This document shows, in pieces, positions 15,213 to 56,251 of a DNA stretch of 64,000 nt. This DNA is from Scenedesmus sp. PABB004 (Eukaryota). The stretch covers positions 186,001 to 250,000 of the forward strand of contig JABVCE010000022.1 in the NCBI GenBank assembly GCA_014905635.1. The letters are read 5' to 3'. The notes under the pieces are model-generated. The model ran no database searches and was not told where the DNA came from. It saw only the letters and a list, made by a program, of their open reading frames with translations. The position numbers and the translations under genes are program-made. How positions within the stretch are numbered: the first letter of the stretch is position 1; each line of letters begins with the position of its first letter.

Positions 15213-16344
15213 GCGCGGCGGCGCGGCGGCGCGGGGCTGACGAGCGCGGAGGCGCGGGCGCGGGGCTGACGAGCGCGGGGCGGGCGGACGCGGGGCGGGC
15301 GGGCGGGCGGACGCGGGGCGGGCGGCGGAGCAGCAGCGGAGCGGCGCGCGGGCGGCAGCGGAGCGGCGCCCCTGCGCCGGCGGCGGCGGCGCGCCTTGTG
15401 GCGGCGCCGGCGGGGCGGCGGGCGGGGCGGGCGGCAGGAGGGGGCGGCGCGCGGGGCGCTGGGACGCGCCCCGGCAGCGCGGCACGGCCGAGCTGGAGCG
15501 GGCTGAGCGCCTTTTTTTGTGGCCGGCCACATCGCACGGCGGCGGCGGCGCCACGCGGGCGGCCGCGCGGGCGCCGCCGCGCGCGCGCAGCAGGGGCGGG
15601 CCCCTCACTAGCCGGGCGCGGCAACGTGGCGAGTGTGGGCGTGTGGTGCGTGGGTGAACGTGGGTGTGCATGGGGCGGGGCGTGTGTTGCTGCTGCTCGA
15701 ACCCTTTGTACGCCATCCTTTTGTACCATGCCGATCGATTGGTCCGTTTGATGCCTGCTCGCGTGCTTTTTACACGGTTGTGGCCGGCCGTGACCCCGGC
15801 GGCGGGGGGCGCGGCGTGTGCACGAACCCTGTCGGCGAGCGCGCGGTCCTTGCATGCACTTAGTGCGCTGGCGCGCATGCAGGCCAGGACTTGATCCGCG
15901 CGAGTTGGCGCCGTGCGGGGCGGCGCCGCGCCTCTCTTGCAAATCGAGCGGCAGTGACGCCCGCCGCCGCGGCTTGCTTTTCCGGCGCGGCCGCTCCCCC
16001 AGACACACACGGCTACTTGCGACGACAGCTCACATCTCCTCGACCGCCAGCCCTCTCGACCGCACGCCGAGCGACGCAGGTGCGATGCGCGCCAGACCGC
16101 GCCGGACCCGCGTATGGCGTCTAGGGGCCGCGGCGACGCTTGAGATAAGGGAAACATTACTCATCAAAGCTTACCGTCCAGCGATCGGCAGCGCGCGCGG
16201 CCTGGCTGCGCGGCCTGGCAGATGCCGAGCGTGGCAGGCCCTCCCCGCGCGCGCGGCGCCCCGGCCGTCGTGCTGCGCCTGGTGGGGGTCTCTTTGGTTT
16301 GTTCGAGCCTCACGGTTGCCCGCACGTCCGCGCAGGCGGTCGCC

Positions 16345-19325
16345 ATGCCGCGCCGGACCAGCGCCGGCGGCGCCGCGCTGCTGCTGCTCGCGGCGGGCGC
16401 GCTCGCGCTCGCGGCGGCGCAGCCGCAGCCCAGCCGGCTGGCCATGGACTTCAGCTGCAGCCTTATTGCGGCTCCCAGCGCTCCCGCGAGCGTGACGGCG
16501 CGCGTGGAGGCGCTGCTGGCCGACATGTCGCGCGACGGCGTGAACAACCTCTGCGCTCGCAGCCCCGCGCACGTGTGCGCCCCCGGCGCCACGCAGACGC
16601 TGGCCGCGGCGGCCGCGGCTGCCGCCGCCACGGCCTCCTCGCCGGCGCCCGCGCCGGCGGCGGCGTCGCAGCGCCGCCCCGCGCGCGGCTCGCTGCGCCG
16701 GCCGCTCGGCATCCATGTCGACCTCAGCGCCGGCGGCGCCGACATCACCTTCGGCGCCGACGCGGCGCCCGCCGTTGCCGCCGCGCCCGCCGTCGCTGTG
16801 GCGCCCGCCTTTGCCGCCGAGCCCACGATCGCCGCGCCCGCGAGCGGCTGCACGCTCTGCGCGCCGGCCGCGACCGCGGCCGCCGCCGCCGCCGGCGGCG
16901 CCGCCGCGCCGCTCTGCGCGTGCGCCGCGCCGGGCGGCAAGACGCGCTGCACCTGCGCCGGCAAGCTCAGCGGCGCGGAGTACTTCAACTCCAGCTGGTA
17001 CGGCGTCGAGCTCGCCCGCGTGGTTGTGGAGTCGGTCGGCGGCGCGCACGCAATCACGGGCGTGATCAACGCCAACTTCAACTCCACCGTGCGCCTGAGC
17101 GGCAGCAAGCTGGTGCGCGCGGCGCGACGCGACGCGGCGCGACGGGGGCCCCGCCGGCGGCCGGCGCACGGCCCGGAGCGCGGCGCGCCCACGCCGCCGC
17201 GCCGCCCGCAGACGATCGGCCGCGCCGCGGGCGCGTCGGGCCAGGACGGCGGCGGCGACCTGGAGCTCGATGAGAGCTTCCTGGTGCGGCGCCGGCGCGG
17301 CACTGACCCGCTCCACTGCGCTGCACCGGCCCGGCCGAGCCTGCGAAAAGGACACTGATGCGACCATCACCGCCGCCGCCGCCCCTGCCCGCGTGCTGCG
17401 CAGGACCTCCTGGATGGCTCTGAGCTGGCGCTGGTTGACAACGGCGACCTGGAGGTGGAGGACGCAGGCGGGCTGTGGATGGCGGGCGCCTCCAAGCTGG
17501 TCATCAGCCAGACCAGCAACGCACAGACGCAGGCGCGGAGGCGGCGCCGCGCCGGGGGCGGCCCGCTCGCGCGCGCGCCAGCTGACACGCGCCTGCGCCG
17601 CGCCGTGCCGCGCAGCTGGCCCACATCCTGGTCGAGGGCGGCAGCAGCATCGTGGTCGAGAAGGCGTCCGAGTGGAACGTGACACAGGAGTTTGACTTCA
17701 CGCCCGCCGCGGGTGAGCGCAGTGCGCGCGCCGGGTCATGCCGGCCCACAGAGCGCCGCACGTGTTCCCTCGGCCGACCGCCGCGCCGCGCCGCGCCGCG
17801 CGCCACCTGCCGCGCCGCCGCCGCAGCCGCGGCGGTGTGCAACGCGCCGTTTGCGCCCGACGCCGCCGCGGCGGCGTGCTTCGGGGACAAGGCGGCCTGC
17901 CGCGCGCGGCTGGACGTGCTGAGCGGCGCTGAGAAGCAGTCCATCGGCATGCTCGCTTATCCGCCCGCGCTCGACCGCTGGGGCCGGCAGGCGTTTGACT
18001 ACAGCGACGACGCCGTCTACGACGGTGAGCGGCCGGCGCCGCGCCGGTCAGCACGCACCGGCCCCGCGCCGGGGCCTGCCGCTCACACCGTTGCGCCCCC
18101 GCCTCCGCCCATGCGCGCCGCCAGACTACTATGACGTTGACTACAAGGAGCCACAGCTCGAGGCGGGCGAGTGCCTCGGCCCCGACGTGTGCGGCGCGGC
18201 GACCGCCAAGGCGCACCTCCCCTTCCTGCTGCACGGCCGCCGCCTGGCGCAGGCCATGCCCGCGCCGCTGCCGGCCGACGGCGACGCGAACGACGCCGAC
18301 GCGAGCGGCGCCAACGCCACCGACGCCGACACCGCCTCGCCCGCCGCGCCCGCCGCGGCCGCTGCGCCCGCCGCGCCCGCGGCCGACGCCGACGCGGACA
18401 ACGGCGCCGGCTACCTGAGCACGGCCGAGGTCAACGTCAAGGACACGCCCGACGGCTCGGGCTACGACCCTGCCTGGGGCGAGGGCCCGTACGGCGAAAA
18501 TCTCTGCGACGCGCCGCCCGGCCGGTCGTTCAACTACTACGGGTGCGCCGCGCCGCCGCCGCCGCCGCCGCTGCCGCCGTGCCGCGACGCGAGCCCTCCT
18601 CGAGGGCGCGCGCGCTGGCGGCCGCGGGCCCACCACGGCGTCACCAAACGCCCGCCCGTCGCGCCCGCCCCCGCCCCGGCCTCTCCAGCATGGTCGTGCG
18701 GCAGGGCTCGTCCATCCGCGTGTCGTCGGGGTCGGCCTGGTCCCTGTTTGACCAGAGCCGCGTGTTCATCATCGATTCAGCGCTCATGCTCGAGGGCGGG
18801 TCGCGCCTCGCGCTGCGCAACAGCACCCTCGTGCTCATCAACTCCACGCTCACCGTCTCGGGCGCCTCCCAGGCGCGGCGCCGGCGGTGGCAGTGGACGG
18901 CGCTGCCGGCGCGCCGCGCCCGGTGGCGCTTGACCGGCGTCGCCGCCCGCTCGTCTGCCCGCCCGCAGATCACCATGGAGCGCTTCAGCGGGCTGCACCT
19001 CTTCAACAGCCGCCTGCTCGGCGACAGCGCCCTGTTTGCGGTGCCGGCCAACTCGACCTGGGGCGGCGCGCCGTGGCTGCAGCGCGGCGACTACCGCGCG
19101 AGCGCCGGCGGCGGCCTGCCGACCGCGATGGGCGCGCGCGCGGGCGTGCAGCTGGGGAGCTACCCGCTGCGCGTGTTTGGTTTTGACCTCGACGCCCGCC
19201 TGCTCGCGCCCGTGGGCTGCGACTGCAAGGCGCCCAAGACCGCGATCAAGGCGGCGCCCGCCGTCACGGCCTGGCCGTCCGCTGACGGCGAGGGCTGGGC
19301 TGGGCCGCTGGAGGGCCTCATCTGA
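16345..19325 (+). CDS. Secreted Cys-rich / beta-solenoid-like protein of unknown function, copy 1 (8 exons, about 740 aa)
   Basis: Signal peptide MPRRTSAGGAALLLLAAGALALAAAQ. Exons 16345-17112, 17212-17283, 17404-17532, 17616-17712, 17827-18024, 18125-18542, 18689-18872 and 18969-19325 splice in frame. Several NxS/T sequons. Confidence 0.8.
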
Positions 19326-19507
19326 GCCGTGTCTTTGCTCGAGGGGTGAGGGCGAGCTGGCGAGATTGAGTTGTCCTGAGTTCATGACGTTTTGGTCTGG
19401 TCTGCTGTGGCTGTCGGGTTGGCGGCTCCGGGGCGCGTGCGTGGCCCCGTGAGCGCGCATTTGCCTGCGACACACTCCGCTGGCTGCTTCTCCACTGGCC
19501 AGCCCTT

Positions 19508-19672
19508 CGCGCCCGTCGATGTGCTGCGCGCGCTGCGCCTCGGCACGTACGGCCTGTTGATCGACGGACCCGTGGGGAGCGCCGGGTACGACTGCCTCGA
19601 GCGCTGCGTGTGGCCGCGCGACCCCTCTCCACGCGCGCGGTGCTGGAGGCGCTCGACCAGTCGTCTATGCGT
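19508..19672 (+). pseudogene. Degraded copy of Mpv17 exon 2 at the duplication junction
   Basis: Matches 13852-14022 (APVDVLRALRLGTYGLLIDGPVGSA...) with W>G and W>C changes and small deletions; no flanking exons. Confidence 0.88.
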
Positions 19673-20138
19673 CCTCGGAGCGCCGCCCCCGCGACCGCGA
19701 GGGCGCCGTGCGGGGCGGCGCGCGCCTCTTGCAATGGGCGGCAGTGACGCTTGCTCCGTCCGCCGCGGCTTGCTCCTCCGGCGCGGCCGCCACCCGCTCG
19801 ACACACACAGCTACTTGCGACGACAGCTCACATCTCCTCGACCGCCAGCCCTCTCGACCGCACGCCGAGCGACGCAGGTGCGCAGAGCGCGCGCGCGCCA
19901 CCCGCGCATGGCGTCCAGGGGCCGCGGCGACGCTTGAGATAAGGGAAACATTACTCATCAAAGCTTACCGTCCAGCGATCGGCAGCGCGCGCGGCCTGGC
20001 TGCGCGGCCTGGCAGATGCCGAGCGTGGCAGGCCCTCCCCGCGCGCGCGGCGCCCCGGCCGTCGTGCTGCGCCTGGTGGGGGTCTCTTTGGTTTGTTCGA
20101 GCCTCACGGTTGCCCGCACGTCCGCGCAGGCGGTCGCC

Positions 20139-23084
20139 ATGCCGCGCCGGACCAGCGCCGGCGGCGCCGCGCTGCTGCTGCTCGCGGCGGGCGCGCTCGC
20201 GCTCGCGGCGGCGCAGCCGCAGCCCAGCCGGCTGGCCATGGACTTCAGCTGCAGCCTTATTGCGGCTCCCAGCGCTCCCGCGAGCGTGACGGCGCGCGTG
20301 GAGGCGCTGCTGGCCGACATGTCGCGCGACGGCGTGAACAACCTCTGCGCTCGCAGCCCCGCGCACGTGTGCGCCCCCGGCGCCACGCAGACGCTGGCCG
20401 CGGCGGCCGCGGCTGCCGCCGCCACGGCCTCCTCGCCGGCGCCCGCGCCGGCGGCGGCGTCGCAGCGCCGCCCCGCGCGCGGCTCGCTGCGCCGGCCGCT
20501 CGGCATCCATGTCGACCTCAGCGCCGGCGGCGCCGACATCACCTTCGGCGCCGACGCGGCGCCCGCCGTTGCCGCCGCGCCCGCCGTCGCTGTGGCGCCC
20601 GCCTTTGCCGCCGAGCCCACGATCGCCGCGCCCGCGAGCGGCTGCACGCTCTGCGCGCCGGCCGCGACAGCGGCCGCCGCCGCCGGCGGTGGCGCTGCGG
20701 CGCCGTTCTGCGCGTGCGCCGCGCCGGGTGGCAAGACGCGCTGCACCTGCGCTGGCAAGCTCAGCGGCGCGGAGTACTTCAACTCCAGCTGGTACGGCGT
20801 CGAGCTCGCCCGCGTGGTTGTGGAGTCGGTCGGCGGCGCGCACGCAATCACGGGCGTGATCAACGCCAACTTCAACTCCACCGTGCGCCTGAGCGGCAGC
20901 AAGCTGGTGCGCGCGGCGCGGCGCGGCGCGGCGCGACGGGGGCCCCGCCGGCGGCCGGCGCACAGCCCGGAGCGTGGCGCACCCACACCGCCGCGCCGCC
21001 CGCAGACGATCGGCCGTGCCGCGGGCGTGTCGGGCCAGAACAGCAGCGACCTGGAGCTGGACGGGAGCTTCCTGGTGCGGCGCCGGTGTGGCACCGGCCC
21101 GGCCGGGCCCGACTACACGACGCTGATGCCGCCGCCACCGCCCGCGCCGCGTGCCGCGCAGGACCTCCTGGATGGCTCTGAGCTGGCGCTGGTTGACAAC
21201 GGCGACCTGGAGGTGGAGGACGCAGGCGGGCTGTGGATGGCGGGCGCCTCCAAGCTTGTCATCAGCCAGACCAGCAAAGCGGAGACGCAGGCGCGGAGGC
21301 GGCGCCGCGCCGGGGGTGGCCCGCTCGCGCGCGCGGGCTGACACGCGCCTGCGCCGCGCCGTGGCACGCAGCTGGCCCACATCCTGGTCGAGGGCGGCAG
21401 CAGCATCGTGGTCGAGAAGGCGTCCGAGTGGAACGTGACACAGGAGGACGATGTCTCGCCTGCTTTTGGTGGGCAGTGCGCCCGCCGCCGCGCCGGGTCA
21501 CGCTGGCCTGCAGCGTGGCGCGACGGCAGCGGGTGCGCGCAGTCCCTCCCTGACCGTTGCGCCGCGCCGCGCTCCGCCGCCGACGCCGCCGCAGCCGCGG
21601 CGGTGTGCGACACGCCGTTTGCGCCCGACGCCGCCGCGGCGGCGTGCTTCGGGGACAAGGCGGCCTGCCGCGCGCGGCTGGACGTGCTGAGCGGCGCTGA
21701 GAAGCAGTCCATCGGCATGCTCGCTTATCCGCCCGCGCTCGACCGCTGGGGCCGGCAGGCGTTTGACTACAGCGACGATGCCGTCTACGACGGTGAGCGG
21801 CCGGCGCCGCGCCGGTCAGCACGCACCGGCCCCGCGCCGGGGCCTGCCGCTCACACCGTTGCGCCCCCGCCTCCGCCCATGCGCGCCGCCAGACTACTAT
21901 GACGTTGACTACAAGGAGCCACAGCTCGAGGCGGGCGAGTGCCTCGGCCCCGACGTGTGCGGCGCGGCGACCGCCAAGGCGCACTTCCCCTTCCTGCTGC
22001 ACGGCCGCCGCCTGGCGCAGGCCATGCCCGCGCCGCTGCCGGCCGACGGCGACGCGAACGACGCCGACGCGAGCGGCGCCAACGCCACCGACGCCGACAC
22101 CGCCGCGCCCGCCGCGCCCGCTGCGCCCGCCGCGCCCGCGGCCGACGCCGACGCGGACAACGGCGCCGGCTACCTGAGCACGGCCGAGGTCGACGCCAAG
22201 GACACGCCCGACGGCTCGGGCTACGACCCTGCCTGGGGCGAGGGCCCGTACGGCGAAAATCTCTGCGACGCGCCGCCCGGCCGGTCGTTCAACTACTACG
22301 GGTGCGCCGCGCCGCCGCCGCCGCCGCCGCTGCCGCCGTGCCGCGACGCGAGCCCTCCTCGAGGGCGCGCGCGCTGGCGGCCGCGGGCCCACCACGGCGT
22401 CACCAAACGCCCGCCCGTCGCGCCCGCCCCCGCCCCGGCCTCTCCAGCATGGTCGTGCGGCAGGGCTCGTCCATCCGCGTGTCGTCGGGGTCGGCCTGGT
22501 CCCTGTTTGACCAGAGCCGCGTGTTCATCATCGATTCAGCGCTCATGCTCGAGGGCGGGTCGCGCCTCGCGCTGCGCAACAGCACCCTCGTGCTCATCAA
22601 CTCCACGCTCACCGTCTCGGGCGCCTCCCAGGCGCGGCGCCGGCGGTGGCAGTGGACGGCGCTGCCGGCGCGCCGCGCCCGGTGGCGCTTGACCGGCGTC
22701 GCCGCCCGCTCGTCTGCCCGCCCGCAGATCACCATGGAGCGCTTCAGCGGGCTGCACCTCTTCAACAGCCGCCTGCTCGGCGACAGCGCCCTGTTTGCGG
22801 TGCCGGCCAACTCGACCTGGGGCGGCGCGCCGTGGCTGCAGCGCGGCGACTACCGCGCGAGCGCCGGCGGCGGCCTGCCGACCGCGATGGGCGCGCGCGC
22901 GGGCGTGCAGCTGGGGAGCTACCCGCTGCGCGTGTTTGGTTTTGACCTCGACGCCCGCCTGCTCGCGCCCGTGGGCTGCGACTGCAAGGCGCCCAAGACC
23001 GCGATCAAGGCGGCGCCCGCCGTCACGGCCTGGCCGTCCGCTGACGGCGAGGGCTGGGCTGGGCCGCTGGAGGGCCTCATCTGA
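20139..23084 (+). CDS. Secreted Cys-rich / beta-solenoid-like protein of unknown function, copy 2
   Basis: Same 8-exon structure as 16345-19325; frame appears intact; differences cluster in exons 2-5. Confidence 0.8.
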
Positions 23085-23396
23085 GCCGTGTCTTTGCTCG
23101 AGGGGTGAGGGCGAGCTGGCGAGATTGAGTTGTCCTGAGTTCATGACGTTTTGGTCTGGTCTGCTGTGGCTGCTGGGTTATCAGCTCCGGGACGCGTGCG
23201 CGTCCCCGTGAGCGCGCAGTTGCCTGTGAGACACTCTGCTGGCTGCTTCTCCGCTGGCTGCGCGTCCTCATGAATGAAAGCAATTGATCCGTTAAACGGG
23301 CGCGTCGCAGCTCAGTGTCGCGCGCCGCCGCCGTCGCTGATGCGCCGCCCGCCCGCCCGCCGCACCCGCGCCCCGCGCCGCGCCGTCGCGCCGTCA

Positions 23397-24849
23397 TCAC
23401 GCGGCCGCCTCGGGGCGCTTGCGGTGCAAGAAGAACGCCGCGTCGCACACCACCACCGTGAGCACGCCCGTGCCGAGCAGCGCGCACAGCAGCCCGGGCA
23501 CGCACGGCACGCCCGCCGACGAGATTGACCAGTAGCCCCAGAGCTGCAGCGCCGCGACGAGGGCCATGGCGAGGTTGAGGGTGCGGAAGGTGCTCGCCGC
23601 GAGCCGCCCCCGGTCGGCCGCGTCCTTCAGCGTCGCCCACACCACGCCTGCCCGCGGCGGCGGCGGCGGCGGCGGCGGCTCGCGCGCCGGCGGCGCCCGC
23701 GCGTGGCCGGGGCGCGCGCGCGGGCGGGCAGGCGGCCCGCGTGGGGCGGGGCGCACCCGCGAGCAGCATGCCGCCGCCGCGGGCCTGCTTGAGCATGACC
23801 GCGGCCGCGCCCTCGTCGAGCAGGAACAGCGGCGTGCCGGGCGCGGGGAACTGCCAGAAAAACTGGTACAGCGCCAGGGCAGCGCACAGCGCGTAGAAGC
23901 CGCCTGCCGGCACGGCACGGCAAGGCAAGGCACGCAGCGGCCGCGGCGCGGCGGCGCGTGGGCGGCCCGCGCGCGCAGGCGCCGGCGCGCCCCCTGCCTG
24001 CCACCGGGCGCCCGCGCTCCCCGCGCCGCCGGCACGCTCACTCAGCAGCGTCTTGGGGCGGGCGAGGTCGGCCACGCCCGCGGCAAAGCCCCGCACGACC
24101 GCGGGCAGGCTGAAGCCGCCCGTGCCGGCCGCGTACACGCGCGCCGCCACGAGGGCCGTGCCCAGGAACACCGCGCCGCCGACGCTGCGGGGTGAAGCGC
24201 GGCGCGGCGCGGCGCGGCGTGGCGCCGCCGCCGGCGGCCGCCGGCGGCCGTCACGCGCGCGCCCTCCCTTCTGCCGCGCTCACCCGAGCGTCGCGGACGT
24301 GAAGATGGTGCGGTTCTTGGCCAGCAGCACCGCAAACACGACGCACTGGTACATCACGCCCAGCCCCAGGCGCTTGTACGTGTCCGACCCGAGCCGGCCG
24401 TGCAGCGCCGCGTCCTGGCCGCGTGGCGGCGCGGCGGTCGTCACGCTCTCAGCGGCGGCGCGCAGCGTCCCCAGCACGCGCGCCCAGCGCCCGGCTCCCA
24501 CCTTGAGGCAGAGGAGGCAGGATACGATGAGGAAACAGTATGCGCCGGCGATCTGGAGCTGCCCGGTGGGCGCCGGGGTCGGGGCAAAGCCGAGCAACTG
24601 CATCGACCAGGCGGGCGCGAGTGTCGTCGCGGCGCCCAGCGCGCCGTGCAGCGCCGCCAGCGCCGCCAGCGCCGGGGCCTGCTGCTCAGGCGACGCGAGC
24701 ACGCCGCCGCCGCCGCCGCCCGACGCCGCTGCCGCGGCGCGGCGCGCCGGTGGCGCGAGCGCGCGCCGCGCCGTGCCGCCGCGCGCGGCCAGGCGCTGCC
24801 GTGCGGCGGGGTGCGCCGACGGCGCGGTGCCGCGCAGTGCCGCCTGCAT
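23397..24849 (-). CDS. Predicted plastid multi-pass membrane protein with an internal two-fold repeat
   Basis: Transit-like MQAALRGTAPSAHPAARQRLAAR..., several hydrophobic helices, and repeated motif LKDAALHGRLGSDTYKRLGLG / LKDAADRGRLAASTFRTLNLA; 5 exons. Confidence 0.75.
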
Positions 24850-30402: not shown

Positions 30403-31080
30403 ATGACGCACGCCAGCGAGCGATCGCGCAGCGGCGGCCCCGCGCCGGGCGGCAGCAGCGCGCTGCGCCAGCGCACGGCGCTGGCGGCGCTGCTGCTTCT
30501 CGTTTTACTGGCCTCGAGCTCTCGCAGCGCCAGCAGCACCGCTTGGCAGCTGCAGCCGCAGCGCCGCGCGGGCGTGCGGCGCCTGCTGCAGCAGGCGCGG
30601 CCGCTGACGCCCTCGCAGGCAGCGGCGGCGGACGCCGCTGCGCGGGTGGTGCTGGCGGCGCTGCCGGCCATCTGGGCGGCGCGCGCGCGCCGCGCCGCGG
30701 CGGCGGCGGCGCTGGCGCCGGCGCAGGCGCCACCGGTGGCGGCGTTTGGCGCGCCGCCGCCGGCCGGCTGGCAGCCGCTGCCGGCGGCGCCGCAGCCGCA
30801 GCAGCCGGTGGTCTATCTGCCGGTCAGCGCCACCGGCGCCGGCAACGGCGGCGGCGCGCCCGCAGGCGGCCAGCCGCTGGGCGGCGGCGGCGCCATCAGC
30901 GTGTCGACCTCCACGCCGGTGACGGTCGTCGCGCCGATCAACGTGACCACGCCGCTGACGCAGACGACCGTGCAGGCCGGCGGCGGCGGGGGCGGGCTGA
31001 GCGACGCCTTGCTGGTCGCGGCGGCGCTCAAGCCGCGCCTCGTGGTCGTGCCGATCCTGCTGCCGCTCGGACGGCGGTGA
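30403..31080 (+). CDS. Hypothetical secreted or membrane-anchored protein, single exon
   Basis: Hydrophobic ALAALLLLVLLASSS segment, RRLLQ motif, Thr/Val-rich SVSTSTPVTVVAPINVTTP and hydrophobic C-terminus. Confidence 0.55.
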   Translation: MTHASERSRSGGPAPGGSSALRQRTALAALLLLVLLASSSRSASSTAWQLQPQRRAGVRRLLQQARPLTPSQAAAADAAARVVLAALPAIWAARARRAAAAAALAPAQAPPVAAFGAPPPAGWQPLPAAPQPQQPVVYLPVSATGAGNGGGAPAGGQPLGGGGAISVSTSTPVTVVAPINVTTPLTQTTVQAGGGGGGLSDALLVAAALKPRLVVVPILLPLGRR

Positions 31081-31414: not shown

Positions 31415-34149
31415 ATGGCAGCGATGGCAGCGGCGGGCGCGACAGCAGCGGCGACCTGCGCCGACGCGACCATCGGGGCGCTCTGCGACGCTGGCGTGGA
31501 CGTCTGCTTCGCCAGTGCGCAGGGCGCTGCGCCGTGGCACGCGGCCGGCGCACGTAGCTGGCGCGCGCGAAGCTCCACGCAGCGCCGCGCCCCATGCCGG
31601 CGCAGACCCCGGGACGACCGAGATGCACCTCGCCGCCTCGCTGGACCGCCAGGCGCACCGCATCCGCTCCGTGCTGGGCCTGCAGGAGGCGGTCTGCACG
31701 GGCGCCTGCGACGGCACGCCGCCGCCGCGCGCCAGGGCACGCGCGGGGCCGCGCGCCCACGCGCCGCCACGCCACCGCGCCGCGCCGCCGAGCCGGCGTC
31801 GCGCCGCGCCGCCGCCGCCGCAGGCTACGCCCGCGTGGCGCGCCGGCCGGCGCTCGCGCTGCTGCACCTGGGGCCTGGCCTCGGCAACGGGCTGTGCAAC
31901 CTGCACAACGCGCGCCGCGCGGGCAGCCCTGTGCTCGTCCTCGTCGGCGACATGGCGACCTGGCACGCCGCCGCAGGTGCGCGGCCGCGGCCGCGCCGAG
32001 CGCGGGCCGTGACGGCCGCAGCACGGGCCGCCGCTGCGCGGCCGCTCATCCGCGCCGCGCACGCCGCGCCCGGCAGACCCGCCGCTCGCGCAGGACATCG
32101 CAGCGCTGGCGGGCACGGTGTCGGGCGCGGTGCTGCGCGCCGACGGCCCCGCCGGCGTCGCGCCGGCGCTGGCCGCCGCGTTCGCGGCCGCGCGCGCGGG
32201 GCCGAGCCTGCCCGCGCCCGGAAGCGGCCCGGCCGCCGCCGGCGCGCCCGGCGCGCGCTGCTGCCCCGGCAGCCGCGTGGCCACGGTGATCCTGCCGCAC
32301 GACGTCTCCTGGTCGCCCGCGCCGCCCGCGCCGGCGGGCGCCGCGGCCCCGCCCCCGCCCGGCGCGCCGCGCCTGGCCGACAGCGCGGCGGCGCGCGAGT
32401 TTGTCGCCGCCTGCGCGGCCGCCCTCAGCGCCGCGCCGCGCGGCAAGGCGGCGCTGCTGCTCGGCGGCGCCGCGCTGCTGGCCGAGGGTGCGGTCGCGCG
32501 GCCCCGCCGCCGCCGCGGGCGGGGGCGGGGCGCGGGCGCGGGCGCGGCGCAGCCCACCCCGTGCCGCGCCGCCGGCGCCCCGCCCCGCAGGCGGCGCGCT
32601 CGCGGCGGCGGGGCGCGTCGCGGCCGCGCTGGGCGCCGCGCTGCTGTGCGAGCCGCTGCCGGCGCGCATCGACCGCGGCGCGGGGCTGCCCTGCCCCGCG
32701 CGCCTGCCCTACTTCCCCCAGGCGCGGCGGAGCTCGCCTGAGCTGGCCAGCAGCTGGCCGCCCTGGGCAAGCAGCTGCTCGCCTCCAGCCAGCTCCGCCG
32801 CGCGCGCACGGGCGCGCGTGCGCGCTACGCGCTCGCCCCGCCGCCGCCGCCACGGCGCAGGAGGCGGCGGCCGAGCTTGCCAAGTACAGTGTGCTGCTGC
32901 TTGTCGACGTGCGGCGCCCGGTGGCGCAGTTTGGGTACGACCGCGGCCCCAGCCAGCTGCTGGCGCAGGGCGACGACGCGGTGTGGGAGCTGGACGCGAG
33001 CTGGGCCGCGGGCGAGGCGCTGGCGCTGCTGGTGGAGGCGGTGCCCGGCGCGGCAGGCGTCCAGCCGGGCGTCAACTGCGGCGGCGTGTTCGCCGCGCCG
33101 CAGCGCCCGCCGCTGCCGACGGGTGCGCGCGTGCTGCCCTTCTTTTGCGCCGCCCACAGCGCGCGCCGCCGCCGCCGCCGACTCCGTGCCGCCACCGCGG
33201 CACTGCCGTCGCCGGCCGCGGCCGCAGGCCCGCTGACGGCGGCAGCCCTGTGCGCGTGCGTCGCGTCGCTGCAGCCGGCGGACGTCATCGTGGTCGACGA
33301 GTCCCTTACGAGCGGCACGGCGCACTGGGAGGCCTCCAAGGCGCGGCCGTGGCGCCGCCACGCGCCGTGCTGCCGCGAGGCGCGGGCCCCCGCCCGCCGC
33401 CGCCGCCCGCCGCCCCGACGCCCGCGGCGCGCCGCCGCGCAGGGCTGCCCGCCGTTCTCGCAGCTCTGCCTCACCGGCGGCGCGATCGGCAGCGGGCCGC
33501 CGATGGCGCTCGGCGCGGCGGTCGCGGCCCCCGGGCGGCGCGTGGTCAATCTGCAGGCAGACGGCAGCGCAATGTACACGCTGCAGGTGCGCGGCGCCCC
33601 GCCCGCCGCCGCCAGCCGCCGGCTGCTGCTGGCCGCGCCGCGGCTGTGCGCCGGGGGCCGGGGGCTGCGTCGCCCGAGGCCGCCGCGCCGCGCCCGCCGC
33701 GGCCTGGCAGGCGCTGTGGAGCCAGGCGCGCGAGCGCGCGCGCGTGCTCACCGTGGTCTGCGCCAACGACGCGTACGCCATACTCAGCGTGCGCGCCCGC
33801 GCCTGCGCCTGCGCGCCGTCAGCCGCGCCGCGCGGCGGCGCCGGCCGGCAGCACGGCGGCGTGTGCGCGGCCGGGCGGCCGCAGCCGGGGCCCGCGCCGC
33901 GCCGACGCCCCGCCCGGCGCGGCCGCGCCGCGCGCCGCCGCGCGGCAGGTGGAGGCGGCGCGGCAGCGCACCGGCTCGCGCGCGCTGACCTCAATCGCCG
34001 GCCCGGCCATCGACTGGGTCGCGCTCGCCGCCGGCCTGGGCGTGCCGGGCGGGCGCGCGGAGACGTGCGAGGCGCTCGCGGGCCTGCTGCGCGAGGGGCT
34101 CGCGGTCGACGGGCCCTTCCTCATCCACGCCGCGCTGCCGCGCGGCTGA
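31415..34149 (+). CDS. Thiamine diphosphate-dependent enzyme, bacterial acetolactate-synthase-like / decarboxylase subfamily, 10 exons
   Basis: [16 protein letters not shown]...[17 protein letters not shown]...[21 protein letters not shown], and ThDP motif [20 protein letters not shown]...CANDAYAIL. Confidence 0.88.
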
Positions 34150-34382: not shown

Positions 34383-35077
34383 ATGGCGGCGGCGCGCCCT
34401 GACGGCGGCGGGCGCGTCAACGAGCCCGCGCAGGAGCCGCAGCAGCAGCCCGACGCCGGTGACGCGGCCCGGGGGCTGCAGCAGGCGGAGGCGGAGGCGC
34501 GGCCGGCCGGCGGCAGCGCGGAGGCATCCAGCAGCGGCGCCGGCGGCGTCGCGGAGGCGTCCAGCAGCGGCGCCGGCAGCGGGCCGGAGCAGGGCTTCGA
34601 GGCCGCCCCCGCCTTCGCGGGAGCGCGCCCGGGCTGCTACTTCGGCACCGGGGCGCGGGGCACGGGCTACTACGCCGACGTGGGCCTCGCTGCGCGGCTG
34701 CGCGACGCGGCCGCGGCGGCGCGGGCAAAGCCGATGGTGCTCAAGAGCTCCAGCATCGTCAAGGGCCTGCAGCGGCGGCCCTTGCCGCCCGACGCGAAGC
34801 GCCAGAAGACGGCGGGTGCGGCGGGCGGGCAGGCGCGCGGGCCCGCCGGCGCTGCACGCGCCGCCGCTGCACGCGCCGCCGCTGCCCGCGCCGCTGCCGG
34901 CGCTCGCGCCGCCGCGCGCGCGGCGCCTGATGTCCAGACCGCCCCCAACCATGCGCCCCAGACAAGGGCGACGCTGGAGCAGCAGCAAAGACGCCGGCAT
35001 ACCTCAAGGAGATGGAGCGCTATCGCGCGCAGAGCTGCGCGTCCGACACCAAGCACGACCGCCCGCTCGTCAAGTGA
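34383..35077 (+). CDS. Small protein with TRIR/C19orf43-like C-terminus (2 exons)
   Basis: Intron 34816-34961 yields ...KRQKTADKGDAGAAAKTPAYLKEMERYRAQSCASDTKHDRPLVK*, resembling the TRIR C-terminal Y..E...Y....C.......RPLVK motif (recalled, not searched). Confidence 0.7.
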
Positions 35078-35663
35078 GGGATGGCGGGGCGTGTGGGGGC
35101 GTGTGGGGGCGTGGGGCGCGTGGGTGTGCGGGCGGGGCGGCTGAGACGCTGGCGCTGGGCGGCGCGCGTGGGCGGGCGGCGGGGGCGCTGGCGCGCCGGT
35201 GCGGCGCCGCCGGCGCTCGGGCGCGTGCAACACACGAGGCGGCCGCGATGTATCGCGCGCGGCGGCGTCGCCGCTGCTGCGGGGCGCGCGCTGGCCGTGC
35301 TCGCGCGCGCGCGCGCCGACCCGCCGCCCCCGCGGGCCAGGCTGCGCGCGCGCCGCCGCCGCCTGCACCAACCGCGACGGGCGCCCACCGCGGCGGGTGG
35401 CCGGGGCGAGCGAGTCGGCGGACGCGCGCTGAGCTGCGTGAGCGAGCGCAGCAGCAGCGCGGCTCGCGGAAGAGTGCCGCCAGTCGCCCGCCCGGCGACC
35501 CCGCTGCACGTGCTCCGGAAGCTCCGACGTCACACCAGCAGCGTTTGCGGGCGGCGCAGCGCGGCGCGGGCGCGCGCCCCGGCCACACACCGAGCCTGCG
35601 ACCCCGCGGGGTCGCGGCCGCCCTCGATCGACAACCTGCTCGCAACCCCTACGACCCGCGGCC

Positions 35664-36137
35664 ATGGCTCCTCCCAAGGCCACCGTCCTCCTGGCGATGA
35701 GCCTGCTGGTTCTTTTGGTGGCAAGCGGCGCGCAAGGTGCGCGCGGCAGGCAGCCAGGCTGGGCGGTCAGCGCGCCGCGCACGGCCGCAGCCGGCGGCGC
35801 GCTCAGGCCCCCTGAGCGCGCGCATGGATCTCTCGCCCAGGCACCCTCACTCACGCGCCGCCCCGCCGCTGCCGCCGCGCGCTCTCTCCTGCGCGCAGGC
35901 CGCGCCCTGCACGACTTGTCCGACGCCGGTGCCGGCACCCGTCGCCTGCTGTCGGCCTCCTTGGCCGCCACCGTCCGCCGCCTCCTGTCTGCCAACGACG
36001 CCGCTGGTGACGTCGACAACGCGGGGTCGCTGGCAACGCCAAAGGCAGAGGTCGCCCATCCCAAGGCCTCCCTGGCGGCCAACTACGATTGCTTTGGGGT
36101 ATACGGGTGGCTGCCGTGTCCCGACTCTGGTCGGTAG
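35664..36137 (+). CDS. Small secreted prepropeptide (about 103 aa after removing intron 35737-35898)
   Basis: Signal peptide MAPPKATVLLAMSLLVLLVASGAQG, two RRLLSA sites, C-terminal YDCFGVYGWLPCPDSGR*. Confidence 0.7.
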   Translation: MAPPKATVLLAMSLLVLLVASGAQGARGRQPGWAVSAPRTAAAGGALRPPERAHGSLAQAPSLTRRPAAAAARSLLRAGRALHDLSDAGAGTRRLLSASLAATVRRLLSANDAAGDVDNAGSLATPKAEVAHPKASLAANYDCFGVYGWLPCPDSGR

Positions 36138-36595
36138 GCCTGCCCGCTGGGGCAGCAGTGCACTGGGCGCCGCGGCGCGGCCGGCCGCCGTCCCTGCCGA
36201 GCACGCGGCCCCGCGCACCGGCATGGCGCGGCAGCGGCGCGTCGGGCTGGCGCGCGGCCGCGCGGCGGGGCGCCCCGGCGTCGCCGACGCGCGCTGCATT
36301 TTCGGGGCGCCCGACGCGCGCGGCGGCGCAATGCAGTTGGCCGGCGTGCACGCGGGGGCAAGTTGCGTTTGTGTGAATGTCAACAAACATGGTGATTGCT
36401 GACCGTCGCTGGGATCTGACCACGTCTGCGCGGCTGCCCCCGGGCCTTGCTGCCTATGCCCGGCGCTGGAGCGGTGGAGGGGTTTTTTCCAACGGTTTCC
36501 CACGGCGCGCGCGCACCAAGCGTGCCGCCCAAGGCCGCATTTGTCCTTGCCATGTTCCAATCAGTCCGCGTTATTACACGCGGTGTACCAACGTG

Positions 36596-36645
36596 TGTAA
36601 AAACAAGTGTAACCAAGTGTAAAAACAAGTGTAACAAGTGTAACC
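36596..36645 (+). repeat. AT-rich tandem array of five TGTAA pentamers (unit about CAAGTGTAA)
   Basis: TGTAA at 36596, 36608, 36618, 36630 and 36639. Confidence 0.85.
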
Positions 36646-36659
36646 ATTGCAGGCGGCAA

Positions 36660-38990
36660 CAGTTTGACACGGGCTGCACCGCGCCGCCTACGCGCGCCTG
36701 CCGCCTGCGCGCGCCTGCCGCCTGCCGCGCGGCGCGCGCGGCCGCCGCTGCTCGCGACGGCCGCCGCGGCGCGGCGGACCGCCGGCCGGCCCCCGCCGCG
36801 GGCAGCCACGGCGGGGCCACCAGCGAAGATGCGCTGGGATACGAGGGCCGCCCGGCGCCGCCTCGGGGCGGTCCGCGAGCGGCGGCGCCGCCCCGGTGGC
36901 TGCGAGCCGCGGCGGCGGCGGGGAGGCCTGCAGCTGCGGCGCCGGGCCCGTCGTGGTGCTGGGCCCGGCCGGGGCCGCGCAGAGCGCGCTGGCGTCGACC
37001 CCAGCGCGTCTTAAGGGTTCAAGGCGGCCCTGATGGGCGGGATCCGTCGCCAGCTGGCCGCCGCGGCCGCCCCAGACGCGCCCACCGCAATCTCCTCGCC
37101 GTCCGACGCCCGCACGCACAGCCAGAATGGCCTCCCTCGCCACCCGCGCCTCCCTGGCCTCTGGCAGCTGCGTGGCTGGTGGGTGCCGGAGCGCGGCGCC
37201 AGGGACCGCGCATGGGCGGGCCGCCGCCGGCCGGCCCCCACCGCCGGCAGCCGCGGCGGCCACCAGCGGCGGAGCGCTGATGCTGCCGCCGCCCGGTGGT
37301 CGCGAGCGGCAGGGTGAGGGCGCCACGCTGCCACGCTGCCGGCCGCGCACACCGCCGCGCCGTGCGCACCTCGCCCGCCCCGCCGGTGTGCTCGTACAGC
37401 CCGGTCGCCCACGGGGCTGTCTCTCGACACCGGCGAGGCGGGCGAGGTGCGCACGCCGCGGCGGGGCTGCGCGCTGCGGCGCCCGCCCGCGCGGGGCGGC
37501 GGGCGCCGAGCGGCCGCGCGCCGCCGCCGGCGCCGCTGGGGGTCGCTCGCCGCGTGGTGCCGCGGCCTCGGCCACAGCCCGCACCGCTCATGTGCGCAGC
37601 ATGTGGGGTCGCACCAGCGCCGCGTGCGTGCTGTTTCGCAGCTGGTGCGACCCCTCACGCTGCGCAGCATGGCGCGCGCGCCTGTCGATGGGCTGGGGCC
37701 GCGCAGGCGGCGATGTCGCAGCCGGGGCAGCTGCAGCTTTGACACGGGCGGCGACATCGCCACCTGCGCGCACACGCCGCGCGGCGCCCGGCCGCTGCCG
37801 CTCGCGGCGGCCGCCGAGGCGGGCCGCCGCCGGCCGGCCCCCGCCGCCGGCAGCCACGGCGGGGCCACCAGCAGCGGTGCGCTGCTGCGTGGGCGCCGCC
37901 CGGCGCCGCCTCGGGCGGTCCGCGAGCGGCGGCGGCGATGGGCCCGCACGCTCTCCGCGCGGTGCGCAGGCCGGGCTGGGCCGCCCGCGGCGGCCGAGGC
38001 GCCGCCTGCCGCCAGCCAGGCGCACCGCGCCCCCCCCCCCCCCCCCCAACGCACAGCAGCGCGGCCACGCACACCCCGACGCGCCGCGCACCTTGCCCGC
38101 CCCGCCGGTGCACTCGTACTGGCCTGTAGGAGGAGTAGAGGGAGTGAGGCGGGTGAGGTGCGCACGCCGCGGCGGGGCTGCGCGCTGCGGCGCCCGCCCG
38201 CACGGGTCGGCGGGCGCCGAGCGGCCGCGCGCCGGCGCCGCCGCAGCCGGGTCGCTCACCGCGTGGCACCGGGCGGCCGCGGCGCACACCGCTCCATGGC
38301 GCGCAGCGTGTGGGGTCGCAGCAGCGCCGCGTGCTTGAGGTCATGCTGGAAGCACGACCTAGAGCACGCGCCGCTGGTGCGACCCCTCACGCGACGCAGC
38401 ATGGCGCGCGCGCCTGTCGATGGGCTGGGGCCGCGCAGGCGGCGATGTCGCAGCCGGGGCAGCTGCAGTGCCTGCCGCAACTGCCAGATCGCCGCCCGCG
38501 CGCGCCTGCCGCGGCGCGCGCGGCCGCCGCTGCTCGCGACGGCCGCCGCGGCGCGGCGGACCGCCGGCCGGCGCCCGCCGCGGGCAGCCACGGCGGGGCC
38601 ACCAGCGAAGATGCGCTGGGATACGAGGGCCGCCCGGCGCCGCCTCGGGGCGGTCCGCGAGCGGCGGCGCCGCCCCGGTGGCTGCGAGCCGCGGCGGCGG
38701 CGGGGAGGCCTGCAGCTGCGGCGCCGGGCCCGTCGTGGTGCTGGGCCCGGCCGGGGCCGCGCAGAGCGCGCTGGCGTCGACCCCAGCGCGTCTTAAGGGT
38801 TCAAGGCGGCCCTGATGGGCGGGATCCGTCGCCAGCTGGCCGCCGCGGCCGCCCCAGACGCGCCCACCGCAATCTCCTCGCCGTCCGACGCCCGCACGCA
38901 CAGCCAGAATGGCCTCCCTCGCCACCCGCGCCTCCCTGGCCTCTGGCAGCTGCGTGGCTGGTGGGTGCCGGAGCGCGGCGCTAGGGACCG
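36660..38990 (+). repeat. Nested tandem duplications of the psaE upstream region
   Basis: About 36720-37210 matches 38500-38990; 37330-37740 matches 38060-38467; 37800-37935 matches 36750-36890. Confidence 0.85.
37127..37210 (+). pseudogene. Truncated copy of psaE exon 1 and the start of intron 1
   Basis: atggcctccctcgccacccgc...gctggtgggtgccggagcgcggcgc is identical to 38909-38982, then diverges; no downstream psaE exons. Confidence 0.85.
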
Positions 38991-54222: not shown

Positions 54223-54597
54223 CGGCTAGCGCGCGCGCGGGCGGCTCCGCCGCGCTGCGTCCGCGCGCCGGGGCCGCGCTGGTGGCCAGCAGCTGGCCGG
54301 CGCGGGCGGCCCGCGGCGAGTAATCGCTCGAGTGCGGTGCGCACTGCGAAGCTACGGCTGAACGCCACGGCAAGCTGCGGCGCCGCGCTGCCGTCAGCGC
54401 TCCGGCCGCCTGGGCCCCGCGCGCACCAGGCCGCCGGAACCGCCGCCGCGGCTTGCCGCGCGCGCAGCGGCGGCACCCGGCGCGCGCACACGCCGGCCTC
54501 GCCACGGCCGCGTCCGCGCCCCGCCAGGCGCCCCAGGGGGCGGCAGCAGCAGCAGCAGCAGCAGACGCCAGCGCGGCGCCGTGCGCGCCCGGGCGCG

Positions 54598-55151
54598 ATG
54601 GACCGCCTGTTCGACCGCGCCTTCAACAAGGCGCACGGCGTGGTCCACGCCGTCACGGAGGAGGCGTCCCGCGACCTGGCGCGCGAGCGGCAGGCCAGCA
54701 GGGAGCAGCAGCTGCGCGCCCTGAGCACCCCCATGACGGCGGAGGACGTGGTGGAGCGCATCGGGCTGGCCTTCAAGGACGGCGACTACTTCAGGCGCGC
54801 AGCAGCGCAGCAACCCGCGCGCCGCCCGCGCGCCGCCCGCGCGCCGCCCGCGCACCAGCCGCTCGAAGCGCCGCGCGCCGCGCAGGCTGCTGCAGCTGCC
54901 CGCGCCCACGCTCAACGGCCTGGGCCGCGCCGAGTGGGGCGTGAGCGGCGGCGAGGTGAGCAAGGCATACCGCAAGCTCTCCATCCTGGTGCACCCGGAC
55001 AAGGCGCCTGGGCCAGCAGCACGCGAGGCGTTTGAGCAGCTCAAAGCGGCGTACTCGGAGCTGCGCGACCCCGACAAGCTGGTGCGACGCGCTGCCGGCC
55101 GCCTGGGCGGCAGCCAGGCGCGCGCCGCGCCGCGCGCCGGCCGGCCACGCA

Positions 55152-55662: not shown

Positions 55663-55766
55663 GCGGGGCCGGCAGCTGCAACACGCGGCGCCCCGCGCGG
55701 GCGGTATTGGGCCGGCGGGCGCTGAAACAGGCGCCGCCGGGACGCCCCTGTGCTGCCGCGAGCAAC

Positions 55767-56251
55767 AGAGCGCGCAGCTGCTCCTCTCTGCTGGCCTGCC
55801 GCTCGCGCGCCAGGTCGCGCGACGCCTCCGTGACGGCGTGGACCACGCCGTGCGCCTTGTTGAAGGCGCGGTCGAACAGGCGGTCCATCGCGCCCGGGCG
55901 CGCACGGCGCCGCGCTGGCGTCTGCTGCTGCTGCCGCTGCTGCCGCCCCCTGGGGCGCCTGGGGGGCGCGGACGCGGCGGTGGCGAGGCCGGCGTGTGCG
56001 CGCGCCCGGTGCCGCTGCAGTGCGTGGCAAGCTGCGGCGGCGGTTCGGCGGCCTGGTGCGCGCGGGGCCCAGGCGGCCGGAGCGCTGACGGCAGCGCGGC
56101 AGCTTGCCGCCGTGGCGTTCAGCCGCCGTAGCTTCGCAGTGCGCACCGCACTCGAGCGATTACCCGCCGCGGGCCGCCCGCGCCGGCCAGCTGCTGGCCA
56201 CCAGCGCGGCCCCGGCGCGCGGACGCAGCGCGGCGGAGCCGCCCGCGCGCG
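55767..56251 (-). pseudogene. Inverted duplicate of the DnaJ promoter, 5' UTR and first about 40 codons
   Basis: Reverse complement of about 54232-54722 with scattered substitutions and indels; keeps ATG (55888) and MDRLFDRAFNKAHGVVHAVTEASRDLARERQASREEQLRAL. Confidence 0.92.

Follow-up and report, generated by a model that had tools for sequence, protein, structure and literature searches.

Organization of the locus

We analyzed a stretch of 64,000 nucleotides from the green alga Scenedesmus sp. PABB004 (contig JABVCE010000022.1, forward strand), here called the window, and within it a candidate two-exon gene for a small secreted protein at positions 35664-36137 of the plus strand. The window has a GC content of about 80%, and its nuclear genes, which contain introns, are those of a photosynthetic eukaryote. 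Pfam families were matched for PsaE, an ascorbate-type peroxidase, kinesin, MyTH4, TAF9, PX, WD40, DnaJ, ribosomal L16, Mpv17/PMP22, a TPP enzyme, SprT and an M20 peptidase. The candidate had been singled out in an original prediction as the precursor of an amidated, hormone-like peptide, and the coordinates, the intron and the spliced product of 103 residues given there were all reproduced exactly from the sequence. At present the candidate is an orphan open reading frame (ORF) with mixed intrinsic evidence. Its proposed features and those directly behind it are the following.

35664-35736, plus strand: proposed exon 1, starting with the ATG at 35664 and encoding MAPPKATVLLAMSLLVLLVASGAQ plus the first base of a Gly codon
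35664-35736, plus strand: signal-peptide-like N-terminus in exon 1 (n-region MAPPK, h-region ATVLLAMSLLVLLVA, c-region SGAQG)
35737-35898, plus strand: proposed phase-1 intron of 162 nt (GT at 35737-35738, AG at 35897-35898)
35899-36137, plus strand: proposed exon 2, encoding a pro-region and a Cys-ring C-terminus (TAG stop at 36135-36137)
35940-35951, plus strand: first RRLL (CGT CGC CTG CTG), followed by SA; fits the RxxL motif of the site-1 protease (S1P) type
35976-35987, plus strand: second RRLL (CGC CGC CTC CTG), followed by SA
36090-36119, plus strand: Cys-x8-Cys segment CFGVYGWLPC, a putative disulfide ring (Cys codons at 36090-36092 and 36117-36119)
36129-36137, plus strand: Gly-Arg-stop (GGT CGG TAG; Gly-Arg at 36129-36134), at the motif level an amidation signal
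36595-36643, plus strand: five copies of TGTAA, carried by a 22-nt tandem repeat within a low-GC island (36528-36683); a candidate polyadenylation signal

The proposed intron is stop-free and in frame with both exons. Its donor is AAG/GTGCGC (the slash marks the junction) and its acceptor is CTGCGCGCAG/G, which ends GCGCAG/G and stands in the fuller context CTCTCTCCTGCGCGCAG/G; a pyrimidine tract, CTCTCTCCT, lies ahead of it at 35882-35890. Exon 2 completes the Gly codon and then reads RALHD...CFGVYGWLPCPDSGR up to the TAG. The only two Cys residues of the product fall, as originally described, within its last 17 residues, together with its single Phe, its two Tyr and its single Trp. The two RRLLSA copies are encoded by CGT CGC CTG CTG TCG GCC and CGC CGC CTC CTG TCT GCC. 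They differ at 3 of 18 bases, all of them third codon positions and all synonymous, for which the random expectation is 1 in 27.

Proposed gene structure and coding signals

Both splice sites agree with those of other genes in the window, since the donor and the acceptor resemble the three PsaE introns (donors CTG/GTGGGT, ACG/GTGCGA and CAG/GTGCGC; acceptors ending GCAG, one of them after a long C/T tract) as well as the intron of the gene directly upstream. In addition, the positions of the splice sites coincide with composition boundaries. The GC content is 0.64 in exon 1 and 0.70 in exon 2, and it is 0.81 in the intron and 0.82 in the upstream flank (0.81-0.84 for the intron and flanks overall). 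In blastn comparisons neither exon matched anywhere else in the window, and the intron and the flanks matched GC-rich low-complexity DNA throughout it. Tandem Repeats Finder detected no repeat between 35188 and 36203. The GC content at the first, second and third codon positions (GC1/2/3) is.72/.46/.75 in exon 1 and.71/.59/.81 in exon 2, which is the mid/low/high order of coding sequence, versus a flat.83/.81/.78 in the intron.

To score codons we used a log-likelihood (LLR) model trained on 973 Pfam-confirmed codons from 17 stretches of the window. The amino-acid part of the candidate's LLR is 0.31, within the range of 0.16-1.06 of the 17 confirmed stretches; of 855 open chunks of 102 codons, only 0.5% score as high. 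A sliding scan of all six frames ranked the candidate's frame best over 35971-36120, with a contrast to the other frames of 0.66-0.71, and it is over this part only that a frame-specific coding signal was found. Two consecutive 40-codon segments passed, at 35971 (LLR 0.18, contrast 0.71) and at 36001 (LLR 0.01, contrast 0.66). The pass rate for best frame and contrast was 11.3% in real segments, 0.06% in shuffled ones and 0.16% in GC-matched shuffled ones.

The N-terminus was assessed with a signal-peptide heuristic that asks for a basic n-region, an uncharged core of 12 residues (mean hydropathy >= 2.2, at least 6 L/V/I/F/M) and small residues at -3/-1, and that was applied to ATGs followed by at least 45 open codons. 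Six of 478 ATGs in the window, at 4 loci, passed, and the candidate was among them. It has the strongest hydrophobic core of all passing ATGs (8 of 12 residues are L/V/I/F/M), and its signal-peptide-like start is the first ATG of its frame. Two of the 4 loci are the start ATGs of tandem-duplicate gene copies with coding-type exon periodicity. When the window was shuffled 60 times within blocks of 150 nt, a mean of 0.067 signal-peptide-like matches per window remained, and 3% of the shuffles contained a match as strong as that of the candidate.

The C-terminal features are also uncommon. Of 484 ORFs of the window, 4 have 6 or more F/Y/W/C among their last 17 residues, and 12 end in G[RK]{1,2}-stop. 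We considered whether the aromatic/Cys cluster might simply mark the end of an ORF that runs into an AT-richer patch. This was rejected as a sufficient explanation, since F/Y/W/C are only 1.25-fold enriched at ORF ends in the window (6.6% versus 5.3%). The low-GC exon 2 is separated from the AT island behind it by 200 nt of 84% GC. RRLL occurs 26 times and RRL 220 times in the 127,996 six-frame residues of the window. Because RRL is this frequent, the occurrence of RRL in neighboring secreted candidates, which had been put forward in support of the candidate, is a weak argument. The joint rarity of the features is suggestive and should not be read as a probability, because the features were chosen after the fact.

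Downstream, the first TGTAA of the cluster lies 459 nt past the candidate's stop, and that of PsaE lies 587 nt past the PsaE stop. TGTAA is rare, with 7 copies on the plus strand and 3 on the minus strand in 64 kb. The low-GC islands that hold it follow PsaE (40452), the candidate and probably the peroxidase gene (48691, minus strand); the island after the Mpv17 gene has TGTAC twice and not TGTAA. A further downstream exon that would replace the Gly-Arg-stop, a possibility raised along with the original prediction, found no support. The only later periodicity on the plus strand, at 36160-36300, lies in another frame of Arg/Ala/Gly-rich translation, with an LLR near 0 and no frame contrast, and for donor-like sites within exon 2 there was no acceptor at a plausible distance. 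Rfam (34500-37500) and a tRNA scan returned nothing at the candidate locus.

Gene or chance open frame

The intrinsic signals are split: the amino-acid and gene-structure signals look genuine, and the synonymous sites look non-coding. A number of observations weigh against a gene, and they speak for a chance open frame in non-coding DNA that is either intergenic or part of the 3' untranslated region (UTR) of the gene that ends upstream, at 35077. We regard this alternative as a serious one, although we would put it at less than an even chance. The locus would then be a unique, less GC-rich stretch in which an ATG and a Leu/Val-rich run are followed by a frame that stays open until a T-rich patch, and the RR and GR-stop motifs would be by-products of Arg/Gly/Leu-rich translation.

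The strongest of these observations concern codon usage. The candidate's GC3 of 0.79 (21 of 102 codons end in A/T) is at the level of the non-coding background, and the 973 Pfam-confirmed codons have a GC3 of 0.963, with a range of 0.84-1.0 in which the lowest value belongs to a 44-codon DnaJ stretch (0.84). The synonymous score of the candidate is -0.44, compared with a null median of -0.34 and a confirmed range of 0.07-0.34, and its overall LLR is -0.13 per codon versus 0.26-1.25 in the confirmed stretches. By synonymous usage and GC3 the candidate thus does not behave like the confirmed genes and is indistinguishable from non-coding DNA. A homogeneous binomial on the candidate's GC3 gives p = 1.5e-10, which is overstated because a confirmed, bona fide DnaJ exon has a GC3 of 0.82-0.84; a low GC3 is therefore not disqualifying. 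The 241 segments that passed the coding scan have a median GC3 of 0.95, and the two segments of the candidate (0.80 and 0.75) are among only 14 below 0.88. Exon edges account for most of these 14, yet the genuine DnaJ exon (0.82) is one of them. Furthermore, exon 1 alone showed no frame contrast in the codon-LLR scan, and the shuffles predict about one composition-driven, false-positive coding-like segment per 64 kb.

The reading frame itself is of little help. The stop-free frame runs over 35442-36137 (231 codons), with the proposed intron included and in frame, and almost every one of the six frames is open at this locus. For this reason the openness of the ORF carries no weight, and neither the ORF nor its splicing is demonstrated. 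Per kb and strand, the window has 1.9 copies of GTGCGC and 2.9 of GCGCAG, so that the splice sites alone are weak evidence. In the reversed sequence of the window, 2 of 187 ATGs were still signal-peptide-like.

The flanks bear on the proposal that the ORF lies in a 3' UTR. Neither TGTAA nor a low-GC island was found between the stop of the upstream gene (35075-35077) and the candidate, and because of this the TGTAA cluster could be the signal of the upstream gene, and the ORF could lie inside a 3' UTR of 1.5 kb. The upstream gene itself (34384-35077, plus strand) has two exons (MAAARPDGGG…GCYFGTGARGTGYYAD…; last exon …KTPAYLKEMERYRAQSCASDTKHDRPLVK-stop, TGA at 35075-35077) and gave no Pfam match at E up to 1. 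Only 236 nt, including a stretch of about 17 G, separate its start from the TPP-enzyme gene, which stops at 34146-34148.

The homology searches also count on this side. A tblastn search of the window found no paralogue, the next match after self being Ala/Arg-rich junk at E = 0.041. Pfam had no family for exon 2 or for the read-through ORF at E up to 1. A word-indexed protein search with exon 2 gave 75 candidates, none of them at E <= 10. With HMMER, exon 2 found no true homologue among 1.84 billion representatives. Six matches at E <= 0.001 were rejected, because they are tandem-repeat proteins in which 3-10 stretches were summed; in the shortest of them (161 aa) the second Cys is missing and the aligned part is not at the C-terminus. 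A scan of metagenome contigs with exon 2 gave 597 pattern matches, of which 0 were confirmed. The ESM Atlas held no usable match for the candidate, whose recognition score of 1412 is below the value of 2300 reached by 91 of 100 known-family proteins, a score that says nothing on the reality of a gene.

It should be noted that the lack of homologues is weak evidence, because the searched collections contain neither the alga's own proteome nor that of any close relative. The best database relatives of the TAF9 neighbor are Scenedesmus and Tetradesmus proteins with 60-70% identity over more than 80% coverage, and no near-identical protein to it was found in these collections, which points to a chlorophycean-like alga. 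Moreover, a neighboring ORF at 30403-31080 (plus strand; 225 codons in a single open frame, GC1/2/3 of.80/.67/.94) is clearly coding and equally had no homologue in the word-indexed protein search, so that orphan status does not count against the candidate.

What a chance open frame accounts for least well is the combination of a strong signal-peptide start, splice sites at composition boundaries, a contrast in the same frame and TGTAA at a distance typical of a 3' UTR, which is very unlikely under composition-preserving shuffles. A composition artefact also leaves the aromatic/Cys cluster unexplained, as ORF ends are only slightly enriched in these residues. Taking both sides together, we give roughly even odds to the view that the candidate is a real gene for a small secreted protein: a lineage-restricted, probably young, nuclear gene with two exons and a 103-residue secretory pre-pro-protein as its product. 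A young or lineage-restricted gene without the extreme GC3 of this genome would best reconcile amino-acid and structure signals that look genuine with synonymous sites that look non-coding.

The same split could also be left by a decaying or never-fixed remnant, that is a pseudogenised or very recent de novo ORF, perhaps transcribed, that lacks a selected protein function. A protein-like amino-acid composition and frame contrast combined with background-like synonymous usage is the pattern expected of a sequence that has not equilibrated to the genome's GC3 of 0.96, and the absence of relatives in the HMMER search and the metagenome scan fits as well. On the other hand, the ATG, the signal peptide, the splice sites and the stop are all intact, and the RRLLSA copies differ only synonymously, which hints at some constraint. 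We consider such a remnant improbable.

Possible processing of the product

If the candidate is a real secreted-protein gene, exon 1 would supply a predicted cleavable signal peptide and be followed by the phase-1 GT-AG intron. The protein would enter the endoplasmic reticulum and lose its signal peptide near AQG/R. The product of about 78 residues would have a helical N-terminal half with the two RRLL/SA sites, followed by a disordered linker and by a C-terminus with one possible disulfide (C-x8-C) and a terminal Gly-Arg. At the level of motifs, an S1P-like subtilase could cut at the RRLL sites, the terminal Arg could be trimmed and PAM could amidate the new end. An AlphaFold2 single-sequence model of the exon 2 product alone has a mean predicted local distance difference test (pLDDT) score of 59.7, with one helix at residues 2-35. 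The pLDDT is about 80 around the RRLL sites and below 50 in the remainder (50 or less in the ring segment). Such a model fits a propeptide but fits a meaningless sequence equally well, and it does not discriminate between them.

Several of these steps have precedents. RRLL was originally read as an S1P-type RxxL site, and this agrees with extracts of PMC13082318, in which RxxL/RRxL is the motif of S1P/SBT6.1, with RALF23 (RRIL) and CLEL6, whose mature peptide lies far from the two S1P sites used in its pre-processing, as examples. An RxxL/RRxL site in the pro-region, as in propeptides of this type, is present twice in the candidate. SKI-1-like subtilases are described throughout Archaeplastida (PMC6713707, in part). 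As for amidation, the C-terminal Gly-Arg has a counterpart in Chlamydomonas, where Cre12.g487700 (ending -GR) and Cre03.g204500 (ending -GRRR) are described as amidated after carboxypeptidase trimming (PMC6919629, in part), and PAM or PHM is listed for the chlorophytes Chlamydomonas, Gonium, Volvox, Ostreococcus, Coccomyxa and Chlorella (extracts of PMC6529398). The earlier appeal to PAM and amidated products in Chlamydomonas is thus borne out as far as both are reported in these sources, but what is amidated there is the C-terminus of large proteins, which were recovered at more than 50 kDa (PMC6919629, in part). Among the Pfam matches of the window there were no genes for PAM/PHM-PAL or carboxypeptidase B-like enzymes.

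All of this bears on the full model originally proposed, a miniature prohormone that is cut by S1P, Cys-ringed, Arg-trimmed and PAM-amidated (Ser-Gly to Ser-amide) to yield a secreted signaling or defence peptide. All of its motifs are present as read, and the coding neighbor at 30403-31080 likewise combines a hydrophobic N-terminal region with AGVRRLL and LGRR-stop. However, the model carries over every doubt about the reality of the gene, and the pLDDT of its ring region is low. In addition, no cleavage motif stands at the N-terminus of the 13-mer named as the mature product, CFGVYGWLPCPDS-NH2; with no basic or RxxL site ahead of the ring, this 13-mer is not predicted by the motifs. What the motifs would predict, as a possibility at that level, is an amidated peptide of about 47 residues that arises from a cut after the second RRLL and ends in Ser-NH2. 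The motifs are also unspecific in Arg-rich algal proteomes, since convertase sites are reported for 756 of 771 Chlamydomonas signal-peptide proteins and G(K/R)(K/R) for 331 (extracts of PMC6313938). Set against the prohormone criteria in the same extracts, the candidate has a signal peptide (by the heuristic only), convertase and Gly-basic sites (two RR, as RRLL, and GR-stop) and no recognised domain (no Pfam family at E up to 1). It does not have multiple similar product peptides, since there is a single ring peptide and the repetition is confined to the RRLLSA spacer. We therefore consider the full model unlikely, and the original interpretation to be partly supported, at the motif level only.

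The consequences differ between the readings. A green-algal miniature prohormone, in which a 103-residue precursor with a helical pro-region and two S1P-type RRLL cuts yields a disulfide-closed, Ser-amidated ring peptide that resembles vasopressin and contryphans in layout (ring-Pro-X-X-amide) and is secreted as a signal, seems very improbable to us. If true, it would be the first small, classical-type precursor of an amidated cyclic peptide outside animals, and it would supplement the amidated C-termini of large ectosome proteins, so far demonstrated in Chlamydomonas, with a small amidated peptide that has a disulfide ring and comes from a compact precursor. Should the gene be real and its product be processed in line with the motifs, it would extend peptidergic signaling in green algae and bear on the age of prohormone-type signaling. 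If the gene is not real, the locus is a warning that the Arg/Gly/Leu-rich translations of genomes with 80% GC readily yield 'convertase sites' and 'amidation signals', and that codon-position statistics rather than motifs should decide such calls.

Other features of the window

Several duplications were observed in the window. A tandem duplication at 16267-19650 and 20061-23400 (plus strand, offset about 3.8 kb) carries a multi-exon gene that matched no Pfam family. Its two copies have an identical signal-peptide-like start (ATG at 16345 and 20139; MPRRTSAGGAALLLLAAGALALAAAQP...). A fragment of an Mpv17/PMP22-family gene (…PVDVLRALRLGTYGLLIDGPVGSAWYDCLERWVWPR…) at 13783-14100 (plus strand) recurs with few changes at 19470-19643 (plus strand), inside the tandem-duplicated region. 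The 5' region of PsaE is directly duplicated at 36700-37190 and 38490-38980 (plus strand), with the first exon ATGGCCTCCCTCGCC... at 37127 and 38909, and the remaining PsaE exons do not follow the upstream copy. Further internal repeats lie at 37420-37730 and 38140-38450, and the duplicated PsaE upstream region contains an inverted repeat or hairpin at 37359-37457 (both strands) that gave weak matches to miRNA-precursor families (26.9 bits, far below the gathering threshold of 75). Near-identical translated segments (…QQQTPARRRARPGAMDRLFDRAFNKAHGVVHAVTE…) at 54511-54870 (plus strand) and 55730-55969 (minus strand) form an inverted exon duplication that flanks the DnaJ-domain gene. Finally, a pyrimidine microsatellite of about 100 nt, (CT)n/(CCCTCT)n on the minus-strand reading, lies at about 4820-4924 in the region of the kinesin gene.

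Comparison with known systems

The closest known parallels to the candidate are the Chlamydomonas reinhardtii ectosome proteins Cre12.g487700 and Cre03.g204500, the latter being the source of GATI-amide. As described in extracts of PMC6919629, they likewise have a signal peptide and a C-terminal Gly-Arg of their own, so that carboxypeptidase trimming alone turns them into substrates of PAM, and RR/KR sites are present in them. They differ from the 103-residue candidate in being large (94 kDa for Cre03.g204500; above 50 kDa) and in belonging to gene families (PMC6919629, in part). The candidate, in contrast, has no detectable sequence similarity to anything and is known from its sequence alone.

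The propeptides processed by S1P/SBT6.1 in plants, such as RALF23 (RRIL/A) and CLEL6/GLV1, have the layout proposed for the candidate, with a signal peptide, an RRxL site in the pro-region and a bioactive part at the C-terminus, and the two S1P sites of CLEL6 stand away from the mature peptide, as the RRLL pair would here (PMC13082318, in part). PAM is reported as missing in land plants (extracts of PMC6529398). CLEL6 is finished by the Asp-dependent SBT3.8, a member of SBT1-5, and outside the embryophytes these subtilases are reported from two streptophyte algal clades only (PMC6713707, in part). Unlike these propeptides, the candidate has no RALF or RGF/GLV domain similarity (no Pfam match), and neither Pfam nor HMMER gave RALF or RGF family homology for the mature part.

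Small amidated peptides with a disulfide ring occur in animals, namely the vasopressin/oxytocin type (a ring followed by a Pro-X-Gly-amide tail), the contryphans and CCAP. The candidate resembles such ring-Pro-X-X-amide peptides in layout only, with a signal peptide and then, at the end, a putative Cys ring, Pro, two residues, Gly and a basic residue. Its ring would lie at the C-terminus of the precursor, after a long pro-region, and not directly after the signal peptide. Moreover, the spacing is C-x8-C versus C-x4-C or C-x5-C in the animal ring peptides, and there is no homology to them.

The nearest likeness in the window itself is the orphan ORF at 30403-31080. It has a hydrophobic region after an N-terminus of 24 residues, AGVRRLL soon after it (AGTRRLL in the candidate; AG[TV]RRLL in common) and an LGRR-stop ending, and CGGCGGTGA is duplicated after the C-terminus. 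It differs from the candidate in its single frame, its GC3 of 0.94 and its lack of a Cys ring. Homology between the two was considered and dismissed, as BLASTP found only an 8-residue motif at E = 0.16. The shared layout of RRLL and a terminal Gly-Arg may be a coincidence in an Arg/Leu/Gly-rich proteome, or it may hint at a class of secretory proteins in this alga that carry RRLL and end in Gly-Arg. If the prohormone interpretation were true, a neighbor that ends in LGRR and carries AGxRRLL would point to a broader class of amidated secretory proteins in algae that has gone unrecognised.

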